Shown here: one piece after another, positions 5,535 through 49,639 of the stretch
Numbering within the stretch: the first letter of the stretch is position 1
How the letters are laid out: every line of letters starts with the position of its first letter
Source: a virus
Taxonomy: Duplodnaviria; Caudoviricetes
DNA: 64,000 nt
IMG/VR virus record: IMGVR_UViG_3300028832_000127
Location: 1-64,000 of that record
Direction: 5' to 3' (one strand)
Notes under the pieces: model-generated
Seen by the model: the letters and a program-made list of their open reading frames with translations, nothing else
Told to the model about the DNA's origin: nothing
Database searches by the model: none
Translations under genes and position numbers: made by a program

Positions 5535-7658
5535 TTAGAATATTCCTAATGCCCCGCCATCGTACCTGACGGGTTTTGTGATTTGACCCAAAATTTGCCC
5601 CAAGACATAATAGCGTGACGCATCTAAACAATTGTGAACGAGTACGCCGTTTGCAAAAAATTCGTGCCGTTCCTCTACCTCAATATCGTACACCTGACGC
5701 ATCGCGTAGGCTCTGTATTCTATCGCGGTGAGCGTATAACTGAATATGCCGCGTGATTTGCCGCTCTCGAACACGAAAACAACGTCCCCGACCTTCAATT
5801 TCTCCAATTCCACCCACCCGCGCAAAGTGCGCACCTTGTGGTCGGGCGTGGCTGTCAACTCCACATAAGAGCCGCCAAAGATGAGGCGCACCGTGACAGC
5901 CTTTTTAGTTCCTTGGTTGAAAAACCGCGTTATCCTGCGGTAGCCGCCGACGGTCAGCACCTTGTCGGAAAGTTTGAGACGGTCAAAACGCACCGCCCCC
6001 CTCTTGGTGATTACCAGCGTCTCGCCAACAAAGCAGTGGTTATCCCTGTCCACGGGCTTGTTGATGTAGTTTCCGTTCTTATCCCTGTCCCACACGTAAT
6101 TTCTTAGTTCGTTTTGTAAGTTCAGGCTGTTCCGCGTTACAAACATCTCCATATCCTTCATTTTCTCGATGCCCGCAAGGATAGAGCCGCCGCCTTTGAT
6201 AACGGGGTAAATCAATATTCCCGCGTTGAAAATCTCCTGTATCAGTCGGGGGTCTGCGCTGTCTGCAATTACGGTCGTGCCTTTATAGGGTTTGAGAGCC
6301 GCCACGATGTCAGAAACGAGCATTTTTGTCTGATAGCAAATCTCCTCAATATACAGCCTGTTATCGACGATTCCGCACCGTACAATGGCGGTGAAATCTG
6401 CGGCATACCCAAAGTCCACACCGAGTGCAATCTTCTTTGCGTAATCGGGGAACTCATCAACCACACCCCAGTTCTTGAACACTGCGCCCTCGGCAACGTC
6501 CGCCCACTGACCCATAACCGTGTGCGCGTACTTTTCGGGGTTCTCCGCCTTGATGCGCTCCGTTTCCTTTATGAAGTCCTCGCTCAAATTCTTGATGTTG
6601 TCGAGGTAGGTGGTGTGTATGTGCAGCACGTTAGGATGTGTGGAGATTTGGACGGGAACGCCGTCAAAGTCCACCACCTTGTGCGTGTCCTTGATGAAAC
6701 GCCGATAGACGAAGTGGTTGCTGTCCGTCGGGTTCATAATGATAATGATGCGGTTCTTGATGCCCTTTTGACGAATTGACAGCATAATCTTGTCAAATTC
6801 CGCTTCACTCGTCCACTCCTCCGCCTCATCAACCACAAAGGTCGTAATGCCGTGTATTGACTTCAATTTAGCGGTTTGGTTGCCGCTTGACGTGTGGATG
6901 CCTCGGAACATTATCTTGGCACCCGTCAGGATGTTGCGCACGTCCCCCCTCGACGATGAAAAATACTTAGACACGCCGTCAAGTTCTATCTTCTCCATCA
7001 TTTCGGGAATGACGGACATATTGGCGGATACCATTGTGTATCGGGTGTAAAGGATTGTGTGGGTTATCTTCTCGTCGGGGTTGTCGGGTTTGGGGAACGC
7101 CTCAAACGTCAGACGCTCGATGAACGCGCCCGTGGCGAAGGACTTGCCGCTGTTGTGCGTCACCGTGCCGTCGGCGTGGAGGTAGCGTTGGTTGCCGTCG
7201 AGGGATATTCCGCACCATACGTCCTTGCCGTGGGGGGTGATTGTAAGGTCTGAATAGACGCGGCGTATGCCGTCGGCTGTCCTTTCCACCCTGAAACCCT
7301 TGAAATTTCGCCAAGCATAGCGGTTTTTTATGAAGTCGATGATGTTAACGTCGTCAACGTATTTCCCGTCCGAAACGGTCAGAATGTGGCTCGCGTTGAC
7401 AAGGTAGTCCTCGCCGTCCGACTGCTGGACGCGGTACATCATACCCCTGCCCTGCATCGTGCCGATTACGGTGCGCGGCGTGAAGTCGTCGCCCATCACC
7501 TGTTCGCCCACGTGGATGTCCTTAATCATCTTTACGGAATTGTCCGCCATAATGATTTTCTGTGTCGGTGTCTCGCAGCCACGCCCGCCCGTGACAAGTA
7601 TTATCATCTTGTCCTTTTCCAAGTACATCGGATTATATACGTCCGCAAGTTGTATCAT
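5535..7658 (-). CDS. terL: Terminase large subunit (PBSX-like) interrupted by two inteins
   Basis: After removing inteins: Walker A GGRG|SGKS, Walker B FVVDEAEE, nuclease GVDFG and DNH|CLDASRY; predicted spliced length 430 aa. Confidence 0.95.
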   Translation of the reverse strand: MIQLADVYNPMYLEKDKMIILVTGGRGCETPTQKIIMADNSVKMIKDIHVGEQVMGDDFTPRTVIGTMQGRGMMYRVQQSDGEDYLVNASHILTVSDGKYVDDVNIIDFIKNRYAWRNFKGFRVERTADGIRRVYSDLTITPHGKDVWCGISLDGNQRYLHADGTVTHNSGKSFATGAFIERLTFEAFPKPDNPDEKITHTILYTRYTMVSANMSVIPEMMEKIELDGVSKYFSSSRGDVRNILTGAKIMFRGIHTSSGNQTAKLKSIHGITTFVVDEAEEWTSEAEFDKIMLSIRQKGIKNRIIIIMNPTDSNHFVYRRFIKDTHKVVDFDGVPVQISTHPNVLHIHTTYLDNIKNLSEDFIKETERIKAENPEKYAHTVMGQWADVAEGAVFKNWGVVDEFPDYAKKIALGVDFGYAADFTAIVRCGIVDNRLYIEEICYQTKMLVSDIVAALKPYKGTTVIADSADPRLIQEIFNAGILIYPVIKGGGSILAGIEKMKDMEMFVTRNSLNLQNELRNYVWDRDKNGNYINKPVDRDNHCFVGETLVITKRGAVRFDRLKLSDKVLTVGGYRRITRFFNQGTKKAVTVRLIFGGSYVELTATPDHKVRTLRGWVELEKLKVGDVVFVFESGKSRGIFSYTLTAIEYRAYAMRQVYDIEVEERHEFFANGVLVHNCLDASRYYVLGQILGQITKPVRYDGGALGIF
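5631..6035 (-). mobile_element. Mini-intein 2 (135 aa) in the TerL nuclease domain
   Basis: Starts CFVGET, block B TPDHKV, block F VYDIEV, ends VHN, +1 residue Cys. Confidence 0.95.
7152..7577 (-). mobile_element. Mini-intein 1 (142 aa) in the TerL Walker A loop
   Basis: Starts C (CETPTQKIIMAD), block B NASHIL, ends THN, +1 residue Ser; no endonuclease motif seen. Confidence 0.92.
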
Positions 7659-7661
7659 CTT

Positions 7662-8396
7662 CTATCCGTTTATGTTAGTTGCCGCCGCCTCTTGTATGTC
7701 GTCGGGGGCGGCTGTGTTGTTGGCTACGATTGCAAGTTTCTGCGTCGCCGTGAGTTCCTTGTCCGTGACCATTGCAGTCACCCAAGCCTCGATGTCGATG
7801 CCTTTCTTCGCTTCCTGTATCTCCTTAGTGTCAGACACGCCCGCCTCCGTCTTGACCCACTCGGGGTCGTGGTGGTGCAGCCAAGTAGCCAACGCCTGCA
7901 TGTTCGGCGGCATTTCCGCCTCCGTCTCCTGAATTATGCACTTGTCCGTCACAACCTTGCCGATGCCGCCGCAGTAAGGGCAGTGGGGGTCTTGACCGCC
8001 ACACTCGCACCTGTCCTCTATGTACCGCCGCGTCACGTTAGTTAATTTTTTTGCGCCAAGTGCCATTTTCAGATACGTGGAACGCACAAGGCTGTTGGTC
8101 TTGCGCCTTGCCACCTCCAAGGTGGTGCGTATCCGTGCGCTGACCCGCTCGCGCTTTTCCTCGTCCCATTTGTCGTACTTGCCGTTCTTCATTCGGCTGA
8201 ACACCTCGGGCGCGAGTTGGAGTTCGTCGGCTATCTCGTTGTCGTAATAGCCTGAACGCGCCAACGCTGCCAAGGCGATGTAGAAGTCGTCCGATTCGTA
8301 GTCGTGTTTCGGGTATCGACCCACGCCGTCCTTTACGCCCCTTTCCTTTACCTTGGCTTTGTCTTTAACTTTGACTTTGCCCTTGCTGTTTGCCAT
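7662..8396 (-). CDS. terS: Probable terminase small subunit
   Basis: Directly upstream of terL; HTH (DNEIADELQLAPEVFSR) and PPNMQALATWL segment typical of phage TerS; CxC...CPYC insert. Confidence 0.75.
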   Translation of the reverse strand: MANSKGKVKVKDKAKVKERGVKDGVGRYPKHDYESDDFYIALAALARSGYYDNEIADELQLAPEVFSRMKNGKYDKWDEEKRERVSARIRTTLEVARRKTNSLVRSTYLKMALGAKKLTNVTRRYIEDRCECGGQDPHCPYCGGIGKVVTDKCIIQETEAEMPPNMQALATWLHHHDPEWVKTEAGVSDTKEIQEAKKGIDIEAWVTAMVTDKELTATQKLAIVANNTAAPDDIQEAAATNING

Positions 8397-9248: not shown

Positions 9249-10220
9249 CTATGCCTCCGCGTCGTCAGTGTCAGGCATAACATATTGCGCCATCGTCGCG
9301 TCGAAATCGTGCAGAAGCCGCCGTGCGTCGGGATATTGGGCGAAAACACGCTCCAAATCAGAGGGAAAGTTGTTGCGCAGGTAGTTAAGAAACACGGGGC
9401 TATCCACGCTCTCGCCGCTTGATGTCGCCTTTTTGAACATTCCCTCGCCATAGTCAACGTTGGTGATGAGGCTCTTGTCCTTGATGTACTTCTCTATGTC
9501 CTTGTGCTTGTAGAGGTGCAGGGGGTATGCCTTTTTAGTCTTCCAGTTGATGCCGTCGCTGTCCTTGAAACCCACCTTGTACAGCACCTGTGGGGCAAGC
9601 GGCGCGTCGTCTTTGACGTTGGCGAAGATGTCGGGCAGTTCTGCGGCGGACAGCGCATCTTTGAGGTCGCGGAACGTCGCGTCTTTCTGTGCCTTTGTCA
9701 CCGTCACCTTGTCCGCGTCTTGGTCTGCGGGGCGGTAGGTTATGACAATTTCGTTCTGCTTGTCCACGGTGATTGTAACGCCGTTTTTTTGGTAGCACGG
9801 CACGGTGTAGGTTCTAAGGAAGACGCGCCGTTGCAGGGAGTCCGCCTCCTTCATTCCGAAGAACGCCCATTGTACGCCTGTCTTCTGCCGCGCTATCTCA
9901 GTGATGTCGGCAAGGTTGAGGAGTTTTTGGTCGGGGTTGGTCTCGCAGCCAAGATAGCCGTACTTGACGTAAGAGGAAACGTTGAAGTGGGGGCATTGGA
10001 TAAAGTGCGCATTCGGGTACATAGCCTCCGCCCACCTGATGTAGCGGTTCACGCATTGCAAGTCGGGGACAACGTACATAAACACGCACACAATTTCCTT
10101 GAAGTAAGGGGCGCAAAGGTCGAGCATTACGATGCTGTCCTTGCCCGTCGCGGAATGGAATAATAAAATTTTGTCCGTCTGTTCCGCAATTCGTTTGATG
10201 CAGTCGGTAGCCTTGCTCAT
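9249..10220 (-). CDS. PAPS-reductase-like PP-loop protein
   Basis: PP-loop LFHSATGKDS, FFGMKEADSLQRR, C-terminal YPL motif; apparent ~80 aa insertion. Confidence 0.85.
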   Translation of the reverse strand: MSKATDCIKRIAEQTDKILLFHSATGKDSIVMLDLCAPYFKEIVCVFMYVVPDLQCVNRYIRWAEAMYPNAHFIQCPHFNVSSYVKYGYLGCETNPDQKLLNLADITEIARQKTGVQWAFFGMKEADSLQRRVFLRTYTVPCYQKNGVTITVDKQNEIVITYRPADQDADKVTVTKAQKDATFRDLKDALSAAELPDIFANVKDDAPLAPQVLYKVGFKDSDGINWKTKKAYPLHLYKHKDIEKYIKDKSLITNVDYGEGMFKKATSSGESVDSPVFLNYLRNNFPSDLERVFAQYPDARRLLHDFDATMAQYVMPDTDDAEA

Positions 10221-11333: not shown

Positions 11334-11657
11334 TTATGCCGCAACAAGATTGATGCGTTTGAAGCATCGCCAGCCTTGCTGTTTAACGTCAAAATATCTC
11401 TGTACGTTATAGTCAATATCGCCCGCATTGCGGCTTTTTTCGGGCAGCATCGAGGGTTTGAGCGTACCCACAGCCACCTTGACCGTACCGTCCACCTTGA
11501 CGAAGGTGAACTTGCATATTGTCCTTTTGAGAGCGTCGGCGAGTTTGACGTTAGCCCAAGCCATCGCCATAGCCTCGCTTTTTGTCATATTGCCCTGCAC
11601 CATCAGGCTGTGCATCATCTTGCAAACAACCGCCCTTGTTTCTTTTGTCGTTTTCAT
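11334..11657 (-). CDS. SH3 beta-barrel (WYL_2/DUF2693-like) protein
   Basis: FTFVKVDGTVKVAVGTL...YFDVKQQGWRCFK. Confidence 0.75.
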   Translation of the reverse strand: MKTTKETRAVVCKMMHSLMVQGNMTKSEAMAMAWANVKLADALKRTICKFTFVKVDGTVKVAVGTLKPSMLPEKSRNAGDIDYNVQRYFDVKQQGWRCFKRINLVAA

Positions 11658-11659
11658 TG

Positions 11660-11760
11660 CTTTAAGTTTTAAAAGTTAGTGTTTTTGTTTATTGTCTGTT
11701 TTCATTTTGTTTAACGATGCAAAGTTATAAAATGTTTCATAAATCACAAAATATTTTTGC
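11660..11760 (-). promoter_or_regulatory. Short variant of the repeated promoter, inverted (copy F)
   Basis: Minus strand TTTATGAAACATTTTATAACTTTG...AAAAACACTAACTTTTAAAAC. Confidence 0.8.
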
Positions 11761-11881
11761 ACTTTTTTGAAATATAATGCAAAACATTAATTTACAATGC
11801 TTTATTTACTCTAAAATAAACGTAACTTTATACAAAAAAAAACAAGTATTAAATTTGCAAAATTTAAATCAATAATAAATT

Positions 11882-12583
11882 ATGGCAGACAACACACAAA
11901 GAACACCACACGAACAATACGCCACGAAGCCGCGTTCACGTGAGGAACGCAAAAGGATAAGGAAAAAACTGCGTGAATACAAGGAGGCTTGGTCTTATGT
12001 CAAGCAAGTCAGAGCCGCCGCCCCCGAAATGCAAGCAAAGTGTGAAAGCATAGCAAAGGAATTGGGGGTTGACGTTTCGCCTATTAATTTCAAGTCCTTA
12101 AACAGCGCACTCCGCAAAATGAAAGCCGACACCAAGGAGAACGCGGAAAAGGAACAGCCAGCCGTAACCATACGCGACATAAAAGACCTTGCTCGTAATA
12201 CCTTTATTTGCGACGAAAGTCAACGCGAAGCGGTAATTGAAGCGTTAAACAAAAACTTTAAAGTTACAAGGGAGAAGAAGCAAGAGCCTGAAAATTTTAT
12301 CGGCTATCAGGGATATATTGCGAATGTCAACGTAGGGGGACACACGATGGAAATACAAGTGGTGACGCCGCAAATGTTTTACGCCAAGATGCCAGTAGAG
12401 GACAGCCGCGCCATCCTGCCCGAAAGGATATTCAACAAACTCCAAGCCACGGGATTCCCTGCGGGATTAGGGCATAAATACTATGAGGAGCATCGCGTAT
12501 TAAAGGCAACCTCCCGAAAGGCAAAGAAAATAGAGCAACAATCCCGTGAATACTACGAAAAAGCGCGGCAACTGAAAATTTAG
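11882..12583 (+). CDS. Stand-alone RelA/SpoT-like nucleotidyltransferase (small alarmone synthetase-like)
   Basis: KSLNSALRK, IKDLARNT, GYQGY, MEIQVVT and HKYYE appear in the order of the RelA_SpoT synthetase motifs; own -7 box TAAATTTG. Confidence 0.75.
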   Translation: MADNTQRTPHEQYATKPRSREERKRIRKKLREYKEAWSYVKQVRAAAPEMQAKCESIAKELGVDVSPINFKSLNSALRKMKADTKENAEKEQPAVTIRDIKDLARNTFICDESQREAVIEALNKNFKVTREKKQEPENFIGYQGYIANVNVGGHTMEIQVVTPQMFYAKMPVEDSRAILPERIFNKLQATGFPAGLGHKYYEEHRVLKATSRKAKKIEQQSREYYEKARQLKI

Positions 12584-12864
12584 TCGTCGTACAGACTGCT
12601 GGCTATTCTGTCCTGCTCGCGTTTCGACAACTTAGCCCACCGCCCCGTTATCGTCAAATCATCAACGGGGTGGTTTTTCAATTCGTCTGCCGTTGGCTTG
12701 TAATTGTCCGCCACAAACTTGATTATTTCGTGAAACTCGTCCACGGTTACGCCCAGCCCTTGTCTGCACATCTGACTGATGTCGCCGCCGTTTTTTTCGT
12801 GGCTGGCAACATTAATCCAATATGCAGGATGGGGGGTAATTTCGGATATTGAAGTGTATTTCAT
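12580..12864 (-). CDS. Hypothetical protein convergent on the RelA-like gene
   Basis: 94 aa ORF; stop codons overlap by 4 nt. Confidence 0.7.
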   Translation of the reverse strand: MKYTSISEITPHPAYWINVASHEKNGGDISQMCRQGLGVTVDEFHEIIKFVADNYKPTADELKNHPVDDLTITGRWAKLSKREQDRIASSLYDD

Positions 12865-12948
12865 AATATTTGATTTTTTAGTATCACAAAATTACATTTT
12901 TTTTCTGATATAACAATATTTAGATGCCATCATAAACGTTAATTTTTG

Positions 12949-14103: not shown

Positions 14104-14190
14104 TTTAGTAGTGTTTTTAAAGTTAGTTACTTTGTTTGTTGTTTGTACTTTATTAAACGCAAAATTATTAAAAATGTTTCATAAAACACA
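14101..14190 (-). repeat. Repeated promoter cassette, inverted partial copy E
   Basis: Reverse complement of the 3' ~85 bp of copies A, B and D. Confidence 0.92.
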
Positions 14191-14368
14191 AACTTTTTTC
14201 AAACTTTTTTTTAAAATATTTTTCAAATGCCTAAAAATAAGCAATTTACAAAGACATTTTTTTTAAATATTTTTTTTGATTGATTGATATTTATATAAAT
14301 CTTACATCTATATATATATGAATGTTTCAGGGTGCAAATTTTCTTTTGTATGCCTGTTTTTCTTTGAT

Positions 14369-33834: not shown

Positions 33835-34899
33835 TCAGATTAACTGCGGTATCTTTCCGACCGCCTCGCGTTTTGACTTGTCCACAACCTTTGCATAAAT
33901 CATCGTCGTGGCGAGCGACTTATGCCCCAACAGCTTCTGTATCGTCGCAATGTTTACATCAAGTTCTAACATCATAACCGCGAATGTGTGCCTTGCGGTG
34001 TGGAACGTTACGTGCTTGCCCGTGATGCCCGCCGCCGCCGCCCAATCCGACAGATAGTCATTCGGGCGTGTCCGCATCTTGAAAACCTTGTCCGCGTCCC
34101 CCCTGCGCTCCCCCATGAGTTCCACAGCCTGCGGCGTGATGTCGAGCCATTCGCGCTTCTTTGTCTTGTGCTGCCTGAACATAATGCGCGTTATCCCGCC
34201 CTCGCCCATCTGCACGTTGCCCCACGTCAGGGCGTTGATGTCGATGCAGCGCAGCCCCGTCAGGCAGGAGAACAGGAATGCCCGCTTGACCACCTCGGCA
34301 CGGCACGGCGCGGCTGCAAGTCTGCGCACCTCGTCCATAGTCAGGTACTCGCGCTCGGTGTCCGTGAGCGCAAAGCACTTTACCGCCGCCACCGTTTCAA
34401 GCCTCATCTTGCCCTCTTTCACTGCCTTAAAAAGCGCGGTTCGGAGTTTGGCGAAATAGATTGCCTTCGTGTTCCGTGCAATGGGCAGTGCGCCGATGTA
34501 GTCCTTTATGTCCGACAGGGTGTCCGCGCCTATGTTCGCAAGCCTCTTGCCGCCGTACTTCTTCGCGATGGTGTTTATCAGTGTGCGCAATATCTCCGTC
34601 CTCTTGCCCTGCGTCTTCAATTCCTCTCTGTACGCCCTGAGATAGCCATCGAGCGTGGTCTTGTCGTCCGTGGACAAGTCATACCGCCGCCGCTCCACCT
34701 CAACGGTGCGCTGCGACCTGATTATTTCCGCGAGCCTCATCGTCTCCGCGTTCTTCTGCCTGTCCGCCCTTGTCCGCTCAGGGACGAGGTAGAGTTTGAG
34801 GAACTCATAGCACCGCTCGCCGTCTGCGTAGATGTCGAGATATAAGGAGCGCGAGCCGTCCTTCAACTTTTTTTCTCTAAGCCTAACCTTGTCTTTCAT
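33835..34899 (-). CDS. int: Tyrosine integrase (Bacteroidetes type)
   Basis: Arm-binding SLYLDIY; catalytic TGLR, QHKT, HTARH, LGH and IYA. Confidence 0.95.
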   Translation of the reverse strand: MKDKVRLREKKLKDGSRSLYLDIYADGERCYEFLKLYLVPERTRADRQKNAETMRLAEIIRSQRTVEVERRRYDLSTDDKTTLDGYLRAYREELKTQGKRTEILRTLINTIAKKYGGKRLANIGADTLSDIKDYIGALPIARNTKAIYFAKLRTALFKAVKEGKMRLETVAAVKCFALTDTEREYLTMDEVRRLAAAPCRAEVVKRAFLFSCLTGLRCIDINALTWGNVQMGEGGITRIMFRQHKTKKREWLDITPQAVELMGERRGDADKVFKMRTRPNDYLSDWAAAAGITGKHVTFHTARHTFAVMMLELDVNIATIQKLLGHKSLATTMIYAKVVDKSKREAVGKIPQLI

Positions 34900-35286
34900 T
34901 TTCTGTTTCAATTTCTGTTTTAAAAATTGTAGATTTTCGGGTAACAAAGGAATAACAAAAATTTTAGAAAAAAAAGGAAAATAGGGGAAAAATAAGGAAT
35001 AAAGCAAAATTAACTGCAAGAGCCTAAAAAGGCGTTTTATTCCCTTTGTATGTCGTTTTGTTCCCGATTGTCTGAACGAAACAAAATTTATAATAAAAAT
35101 TGTGCTTTTATTGCAACTATCTATACATCAACATATTACAACAATCAATTTTTTGTCAGTAACAAGGGGGAAACAAAACGGCTTGCGCTATCTAACATTA
35201 ATTACGACAAAAAAAAATATGAATTTTGTTTGCAAAATCAAAAGTTTTTTTGTATATTTGCGGAAACAATTTAACACAAAAGTTAT

Positions 35287-49319: not shown

Positions 49320-49438
49320 ATGCACGAAGTACCCCCAAACTATTTGGTAGAGGTTGAGCCGTTTGGCACTCTACTTCGCAAAGAGGCTGCGCCTAACGTA
49401 CACAGATGTACGGGCTGCGTCGGACTAATAAACGCTCC
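49320..49438 (+). pseudogene. 3'-truncated copy of gene 55638-55859
   Basis: Nearly identical DNA including the AAAGGAGGCAATTATG leader; homology stops at 49438. Confidence 0.85.
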
Positions 49439-49440
49439 CG

Positions 49441-49639
49441 TAGCCTCCGCCCACTTGATGTAGCGAGTGGTGCAGGCGAGGTTTGGCACTACCCACATAT
49501 ATACGCAGACAATTTCCTTGAAAAATGGGGCGCAGAGGTCGAGCATCACAATGCTGTCCTTGCCTGTCGCCGAGTGGAACAGCAAAATTTTGTCTGTCTG
49601 TTCCGCAATCCTTTTGATGCAGTCTGTCGCTTTACTCAT
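49441..49639 (-). pseudogene. 3'-truncated paralogue of the PAPS-reductase-like gene
   Basis: MSKATDCIKRIAEQTDKILLFHSATGKDS...WAEA colinear with 10022-10220, then breaks. Confidence 0.9.

Follow-up and report, generated by a model that had tools for sequence, protein, structure and literature searches.

A free-standing Apk-type synthetase and a convergent 94-aa gene as a candidate toxin–immunity pair in a temperate phage

The first 64 kb of the 76.5-kb IMG/VR virus record IMGVR_UViG_3300028832_000127 (Caudoviricetes), which we call the window, carry a gene for a 233-aa synthetase related to RelA and SpoT that meets a small gene of 94 aa tail to tail, and this pair is the subject of our analysis. 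Both open reading frames (ORFs) and the 4-nt overlap of their stops are present as they had been given in a preliminary description of this DNA (Table 1). The synthetase gene is the lone plus-strand gene within a run of minus-strand genes, the order of which is genes for proteins of 165, 99 and 94 aa, the small convergent gene, then, beyond the synthetase gene, a WYL_2 gene and an ASCH-like gene, and onward to the terminase genes at a distance of 3.5 kb from the synthetase gene. As the gene set includes a tyrosine integrase the record is a temperate phage, in agreement with the phage setting that had been assumed before, and it also encodes a large and a small terminase, a ParB-like and a phosphoadenosine phosphosulfate (PAPS)-reductase-like protein, several DNA methyltransferases, an Erf-like protein, a replication initiator and tail proteins. 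The record is estimated to be 66% complete, leaving about one third of the phage genome outside the sequence at hand, and no match to GenBank phages was obtained by megablast with 20 kb as query. The host probably belongs to the Bacteroidota, since the pattern TTTG-N17-23-TAnnTTTG, which we take to be the promoter consensus of these bacteria, is over-represented in the window (24 observed versus 2.3 expected). Several of these promoters also have the longer block TTTATGAAACATTTT in common.

Table 1: Positions of the gene pair, of its candidate expression signals and of other features in the window.
Feature	Position	Strand	Remarks
Synthetase ORF	11882..12583	+	233 aa, ATG start, stop TAG at 12581-12583
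Small convergent ORF	12580..12864	-	94 aa, ATG start, stop TAA = complement of 12580-12582
Tail-to-tail ORF overlap	12580..12583		4 nt, TTAG; stops TAG (+) and TAA (-)
Proximal -7 box	11850..11858	+	TAAATTTGC; consensus match, with the TAnnTTTG core ending 24 nt ahead of the synthetase ATG
Distal Bacteroidota-type -7 box	11752..11760	+	TATTTTTGC; within the 224-nt intergenic region between the divergent WYL_2 and synthetase genes
-7-like box	12887..12894	-	TAATTTTG; consensus match; 22 nt upstream of the small gene ATG
WYL_2 promoter (full)	11720-11750	-	in the same 224-nt intergenic region
Promoter heading the operon that ends with the small gene	14160-14192		
WYL_2 gene	11334-11657	-	PF10902, E 1.7e-18; Sm-like small protein; divergent from the synthetase gene, same 224-nt intergenic region
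Terminase genes	5535-8396		
Large terminase	5535-7658	-	two Hint/intein segments (residues ~26-100 and ~542-676) flanking normal Terminase_3/3C domains
Tyrosine integrase	33835-35019		

Judged by sequence and predicted structure, the synthetase is a member of the Apk1/Apk2 (Tas1) family of adenosine 3'-pyrophosphokinases. The protein has an isoelectric point (pI) of 9.6 and consists of a basic helical extension (residues 1-42) followed by the catalytic domain (residues ~43-229). Using phmmer, Tas1 (6OX6_A) was found as the sole significant sequence match in the PDB (E 3.2e-18, residues 43-229), and among the PHROGs it is the C-terminal third of phrog_7625 ('head morphogenesis', 504 positions) that matches the synthetase with an E-value of 5e-15. 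The RelA_SpoT model is not among its Pfam matches at E <= 1; the Tas1-type branch is recognised by direct sequence and structure comparison alone, not by Pfam. A Foldseek search of the PDB with the AlphaFold2 (AF2) model (predicted local distance difference test (pLDDT) 94.2, predicted template modelling score (pTM) 0.87) returned Tas1 first (E 9.5e-11, template modelling (TM) score 0.83 by target, root-mean-square deviation 2.5 Å, 30% identity), followed by SaEAS, SAS1/2, Rel/RelA, CapRel and FaRel2. SaEAS shows only 18% identity and TM scores of 0.56-0.63, and CapRel and FaRel2 reach 0.31-0.42 by query (TMq) and 0.29-0.35 by target (TMt). At E <= 0.001 there were 50 structure matches, which among those listed are RelA/SpoT homologue (RSH) synthetases throughout, so that the Pol-beta-like nucleotidyltransferase fold named in the preliminary description as a check of its assignment is indeed predicted.

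When 48 short family members were aligned, no variation was seen at K71, K79, D102, R105, G141, E157, Q159, H198 and Y201, which also align with Tas1, and the ordered motifs noticed earlier fall on these invariant columns (K71/K79, D102..R105 within IKDLAR, G141-Y142, E157-I-Q159 and H198..Y201). As claimed before, a hydrolase domain is missing, with no HD domain detected in the synthetase or in the whole 76.5-kb contig. Family and predicted fold thus agree with a stand-alone RSH synthetase of the toxic kind. The comparison with toxic small alarmone synthetases (toxSAS) held for the membership in an RSH toxin family but not for the FaRel, PhRel and CapRel groups, as the structure ranking places the protein with Apk1/Apk2 (Tas1) instead. 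With tblastn about 39% identity was found to the toxin domain of the locus L009, which we regard as a Bacteroides-type Apk2 locus, the group tied to the Apk2-BcTis1-Aph1 module (PMC10083569), because the gene that follows encodes an HD protein with a match of E 1e-79 to Aph1 (7SMG), a (p)ppApp hydrolase of known crystal structure. Compared with a diverged relative the synthetase gene has a ratio of nonsynonymous to synonymous change (pN/pS) of 0.26 and a nonsynonymous divergence (dN) of 0.23 at saturated synonymous sites, indicating purifying selection. The possibility of an inactive pseudo-enzyme was dismissed, as none of the invariant catalytic columns has been lost and pN/pS is this low.

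With respect to the product, the comparison with its relatives makes (p)ppApp quite likely. For those Apk1 and Apk2 enzymes that have been characterised, (p)ppApp is the sole product (PMC10083569, PMC12226406). On the other side stand some Apk1 homologues (VpEAS and AaEAS), distant members within the wider family, that make only (p)ppGpp (PMC12691689), and therefore family membership alone does not give the product. These enzymes could be taken to suggest another substrate, with the window protein making (p)ppGpp like some exported relatives or pyrophosphorylating tRNA 3'-ends like PhRel2, FaRel2 and CapRel, and its high pI and Lys/Arg-rich N-terminal helix, which could bind nucleic acid, would fit the latter. 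We consider this clearly unlikely, as the toxin domain of Apk2 is similarly basic (pI 9.2) and the nearest relatives are Tas1 and an Apk2-type domain, the characterised members of which make only (p)ppApp (PMC12226406), whereas SaEAS is far more distant and the tRNA-modifying CapRel and FaRel2 are further still. Most probably the window enzyme acts in the same way as the Apk toxins.

Scanning 1.84 billion cluster representatives exhaustively with HMMER, we found 502 relatives of the synthetase at E <= 0.001 and 360 at E <= 1e-10. Most of them are C-terminal domains of phage proteins of 420-1000 aa and many others are 180-260 aa long. In IMG/VR 230 stretches encode relatives, the best ones being 33-44% identical. 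In a FastTree phylogeny of 159 toxin domains the window protein, P0001 and a fragment from L001 form their own long, well-supported branch, and the closest fused relative is P0006 with 477 aa and 46% identity. Fused and stand-alone forms are mixed throughout this tree and therefore the stand-alone form is not unusual for the Apk/Tas1 family. The family is known with three types of delivery domain, PAAR (Apk1), MuF (Apk2) and a signal peptide (EAS), and the window protein has none of them, its match to Tas1 beginning at residue 43 and a hydrophobic leader being absent. Phage_Mu_F gave no match in the 76.5-kb contig, and a split MuF or delivery gene elsewhere in it was rejected because no ORF resembles the N-terminal regions of 91 fused relatives.

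These observations bear on the possibility that the synthetase is a virion-delivered effector like the MuF-fused Apk2, packaged non-covalently via the N-terminal helix of 42 residues and then entering neighbouring or freshly infected cells by injection, with the 94-aa protein protecting the producing cell. The prevalence of fused phage proteins among its relatives and the nearby terminase genes would be in line with such a role, as would the stand-alone synthetases of L028 and L088, which have an N-terminal leader in common with a neighbouring deamidase-type toxin. Nevertheless, we regard virion delivery as highly unlikely, because the window protein has no such leader, no other ORF of the contig shares its N-terminus (first 48 residues), no MuF-like or other delivery domain is encoded in the contig and the gene lies alone on the plus strand among small early-type genes, not within a block of head genes.

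The stand-alone synthetases of L028/L032/L034 and L088 (IMG/VR contigs of 85-108 kb) have 232-242 aa and are 33-36% identical to the window protein. On these ~100-kb phage contigs a 36-residue N-terminal leader is common to the stand-alone Apk synthetase and an adjacent 377-aa toxin, a papain-fold protein of glutamine-deamidase type (PF15644, E 1e-8). The two leaders are 69% identical (E 6e-15; L088:4494-5627 and L088:5914-6642, also L028:5899-6597), each of the two leader-bearing genes has small genes downstream, and from its sequence the leader resembles a short tag by which a set of phage polymorphic toxins might be trafficked or packaged. A leader of this L088/L028 type was looked for in the window protein and is absent. 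Two metagenomic relatives of 234-238 aa, P0002 and P0003 (31-32% identical), start with a lipoprotein-type signal peptide, a hydrophobic stretch followed by Cys, and look like exported alarmone-synthetase-like proteins. The toxin-domain proteins L009:5008-6621 and L046:4762-6591 (538-610 aa) have no Pfam match at E <= 0.01, including Phage_Mu_F, and match the PHROG annotated as 'head morphogenesis', the type called MuF in the literature.

For Apk2 it has been reported that a Tis1/IapK-like immunity gene is always adjoining, and Aph1 is variably present. We surveyed 80 viral loci with an iterated hidden Markov model (HMM) of the Tis1 family and found a Tis1-like gene in 70 of them, in 69 cases co-directional and just downstream (~75 aa) and in one case convergent. 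The downstream ~75-aa family includes Tis1 itself (6OX6_B, E 0.0046). Another nine loci have a different convergent small ORF overlapping the toxin stop and the last one is cut by the contig end. Aph1-like HD hydrolases are also encoded at many of the viral loci; the stand-alone copies in L028 and L088 keep both the Tis1-like gene and the HD hydrolase, and Tis1-like genes also accompany P0079 and P0106, the outgroups closest to the branch with the window protein. In the 76.5-kb contig, which is 66% complete, no Tis1-like gene was found (best E 0.23 with the iterated HMM over the ORFs of at least 50 aa), nor was an Aph1-type HD hydrolase, with no match to PF13328 (HD_4) and a best E of 0.32 with a custom HD HMM. 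The earlier claim that the usual co-directional antitoxin is lacking is therefore borne out for this contig.

A precedent for opposite-strand immunity genes in the family is offered by P0155 (L090:5536-5754, minus strand), a clear Tis1-like gene of 72 aa located convergently ~100 nt downstream of P0006. In the nine fused phage toxins without a Tis1-like gene by HMM, a convergent ORF of 74-99 aa overlaps the toxin stop by 7-10 nt (for example L046:6584-6862, L066:6632-6856, L070:6533-6784, L078:6683-6955 and L084:6533-6832, all on the minus strand). These ORFs have a common ...ISKxEYDxFGITW motif and show only a weak relationship to Tis1-like proteins (hhalign probability 42%).

The 94-aa protein is acidic (pI 5.5) and predicted by AF2 to be all-helical with seven helices, the best model having a pLDDT of 91.5 and the other four 63-74. 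No significant match to it exists in Pfam, PHROGs, NCBIfam, PADLOC or the PDB sequences, and it resembles none of the known antitoxins or immunity proteins. Its known relatives are only P0004 (98% identity) and P0005 (55%), each encoded convergently to a synthetase homologue, and no further ones were found in genome, viral and metagenome contig collections or among longer proteins. In every contig with this synthetase subfamily the 94-aa gene is convergent and has the same 4-nt overlap. The near-identical set comprises five members (L004, L006-L008 and one record without DNA, 98-99% identical), and in the diverged set L001-L003 the synthetase is 65-68% and the small protein 55% identical. In L001-L003 the ASCH-like gene is located directly upstream of the small gene, whereas the window has it on the far side of the synthetase and WYL_2 genes, and therefore the pair stayed joined through a rearrangement. 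The small gene is also under purifying selection (pN/pS 0.38 with saturated synonymous sites, compared with the diverged relative) and its protein evolves faster than the synthetase (dN 0.39 versus 0.23). Moreover, the contrast in charge between synthetase and partner (pI 9.6 versus 5.5) resembles that between the Apk2 toxin domain and BcTis1 (9.2 versus 5.05). Because pair and stop overlap are kept in the diverged relative despite the rearranged flanks, the convergent gene appears as the best candidate for control of the synthetase, and we lean towards the 94-aa protein being its immunity protein or neutraliser, if only slightly. A MazG-like pyrophosphatase, suggested for the small protein by phrog_22758 (E 0.087), was dropped since no MazG-type fold appeared in the structure searches.

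The preliminary description had ascribed an own promoter to the synthetase gene, which stands in so far as two plus-strand -7 boxes precede it, the proximal one (11850..11858) being a candidate promoter by its sequence, and fails in that no -33 TTTG at canonical spacing was found for either box. Such TAnnTTTGC boxes (pattern TANNTTTGC) have 45 matches in the window compared to 13.4 expected. The small gene forms the end of an operon with its own promoter at the head (Table 1); the -7-like box in front of it is not kept in L001, where the small gene starts 18 nt after the preceding gene. No terminator-like hairpin was found between the two convergent genes, therefore their transcripts should overlap, and from this arrangement RNA-level interference between them is plausible. 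A plus-strand ORF at 12670-12852, antisense to the small gene, was taken as spurious, as it is not conserved in the diverged relative.

Several findings weigh against an immunity function of the 94-aa protein or against the pair as a self-contained system. Comparison with the Tis1-like sets gave hhalign probabilities of only 0.2% and 0.7%, and the alignment with the C-terminal ISKxEY motif of the Tis1 family is confined to a short G..VT.DEF stretch. The Tis1 structure 6ox6_B is not among the listed matches of the all-helical model, which leaves room for a fold in common with Tis1, and four of the five AF2 models have a pLDDT of only 63-74. Its structural neighbours are weak and mostly helix-turn-helix (HTH) domains covering residues ~7-57 (Foldseek E >= 0.06, VIA Z <= 3.6, Atlas TM <= 0.42, BFVD E >= 0.7), and the protein may be an HTH-like DNA-binding regulator or the product of a gene that merely closes the minus-strand operon and has nothing to do with the synthetase. 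The pairs that differ in sequence number only two, both from one phage lineage, and ordinary synteny could account for their conservation. The synthetase promoter consists of a -7 box alone, and given the completeness of the contig a hydrolase, a Tis1-like or a MuF gene could sit in the remainder of the genome.

Taken as a separate explanation, the synthetase would be a real Apk-type enzyme, and the gene beside it would encode a small regulator of HTH type or simply be the last one of the early minus-strand operon, unrelated to the enzyme. Control of the synthetase would then be exerted via transcription (weak promoter, convergence, antisense RNA), via (p)ppApp hydrolases of the host or by a gene in that third of the genome which the contig lacks. 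The HTH-like matches, the missing similarity to Tis1, the expected transcript overlap and the incomplete contig all fit this explanation, and Aph1 homologues are widespread in bacteria (PMC10083569). We nevertheless hold it to be rather unlikely, because the 94-aa gene is lineage-restricted and always joined to the synthetase gene with the same stop overlap though the flanks differ, because a small adjacent immunity gene is present for nearly every relative of the enzyme and because an acidic 94-aa protein stands opposite a basic enzyme.

Among the known systems, the Apk2-IapK(BcTis1)-Aph1 modules are MuF polymorphic-toxin modules in prophages of Bacteroides caccae, S. pneumoniae and M. haemolytica (PMC10083569, PMC12226406). 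The window pair resembles them in its phage-borne Tas1-type domain, related to that of L009 and with the same motif residues, in its location on a temperate phage and in the combination of a basic toxin with an adjacent small acidic gene. In contrast, the window protein has 233 aa instead of 525-880 aa and no MuF/head-morphogenesis part, neither a Tis1/IapK-like nor an Aph1 gene is present in its contig, and its partner is convergent, all-helical by prediction, 94 aa long and unrelated in sequence. Tas1 (Apk1)-Tis1, the effector-immunity pair of the type VI secretion system (T6SS) of P. aeruginosa PA14 (6OX6), provides the best match in sequence and structure, but the window protein lacks the PAAR/T6SS delivery part and the Tis1 family (77 aa in Tis1), which adjoins most relatives, is absent here. 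L028/L032/L034 and L088 also encode a free-standing synthetase in a large phage contig; unlike the window they have retained an Aph1-like HD hydrolase and a Tis1-like gene (76-82 aa) that is co-directional and overlapping, and they possess the N-terminal leader. As both the delivery domain and the Tis1-like neighbour typical of Apk1 and Apk2 are missing, the cassette is a variant and not a plain member of this group.

Similar to the prophage-encoded toxSAS PhRel (Phrann gp29) with gp30, the window combines a free-standing, putatively toxic protein of the RSH fold with a small candidate neutraliser on a temperate phage, and Phrann gp29/gp30 is reportedly a working model for prophage-mediated exclusion or abortive infection. 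FaRel, FaRel2, CapRel and PhRel belong to other RSH subfamilies, with TMq values of only 0.40-0.42 for CapRel and 0.31 for FaRel2. Neutralisation in these systems is provided by a fused domain or by an antitoxin encoded co-directionally in the operon, and several of these toxins act on tRNA and not on adenine nucleotides (PMC7229694, PMC11782079), whereas the partner in the window is convergent. The window pair was not matched by any of the PADLOC models.

We propose a two-gene cassette of toxin/immunity type in a temperate, probably Bacteroidota-infecting phage, composed of an Apk-type toxin and the 94-aa protein as its neutraliser, and would put the chances of this proposal at about even. 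The 233-aa protein, of the Apk (Tas1) family by sequence and model, would be active in the cytoplasm as an adenosine 3'-pyrophosphokinase, which would transfer pyrophosphate from ATP to the 3'-OH of ATP, ADP or AMP, leading to (p)ppApp, a drain of ATP and growth arrest. Without a delivery domain the synthetase would therefore act inside the producing cell. The acidic helical 94-aa protein is predicted to be a lineage-specific neutraliser, most likely acting via direct binding, and would take the place of the Tis1/IapK immunity protein carried by nearly all relatives, to which the convergent overlapping transcription may add control at the RNA level. The synthetase would be toxic, and the biological role of the pair could be prophage-borne exclusion or abortive infection, or a timed host shutoff. 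It could also be possible, though we find this rather doubtful, that the 94-aa protein represents a new class of Apk inhibitors, structurally unrelated to Tis1/IapK and Aph1, which took over from the ancestral immunity gene and forms together with the synthetase a prophage-encoded (p)ppApp-based switch for abortive infection or exclusion. In such a switch a disturbance of the partner, caused by an infecting phage or by induction of the prophage, would free the toxin, and the convergent, stop-overlapping transcription would set the ratio of toxin to antidote.

Two other features of these phages were recorded. The large terminase of the window phage carries two Hint/intein segments (Table 1), and in the near-identical phage L004 it has 1091 aa plus a faint match to Hom_end (homing endonuclease). 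A 99-aa ORF at 49340-49639 (minus strand) matches a portion of the PAPS-reductase-like protein encoded by this sister phage (L004:4046-4996) with 80% identity across 67 residues, and its sequence suggests a partial second copy of the PAPS-reductase-like gene, far from the one at 9249-10220.

So far (p)ppApp synthetase toxins have been known as delivery cargo, namely as T6SS PAAR proteins, MuF capsid proteins and secreted EAS, and their neutralisation in phages has been ascribed to two families, Tis1/IapK and Aph1. If the convergent gene does encode an inhibitor, this would be a third, unrelated way to silence (p)ppApp synthetases, and a free-standing cytoplasmic copy in a temperate gut phage without either antidote would be new. 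Opposite-strand immunity genes that overlap the toxin stop recur in the family and routine annotation may miss this layout. If true, the pair would also be a simple system of two genes with which to ask how phages benefit from (p)ppApp toxins, a question left open in the discussion of PMC10083569.

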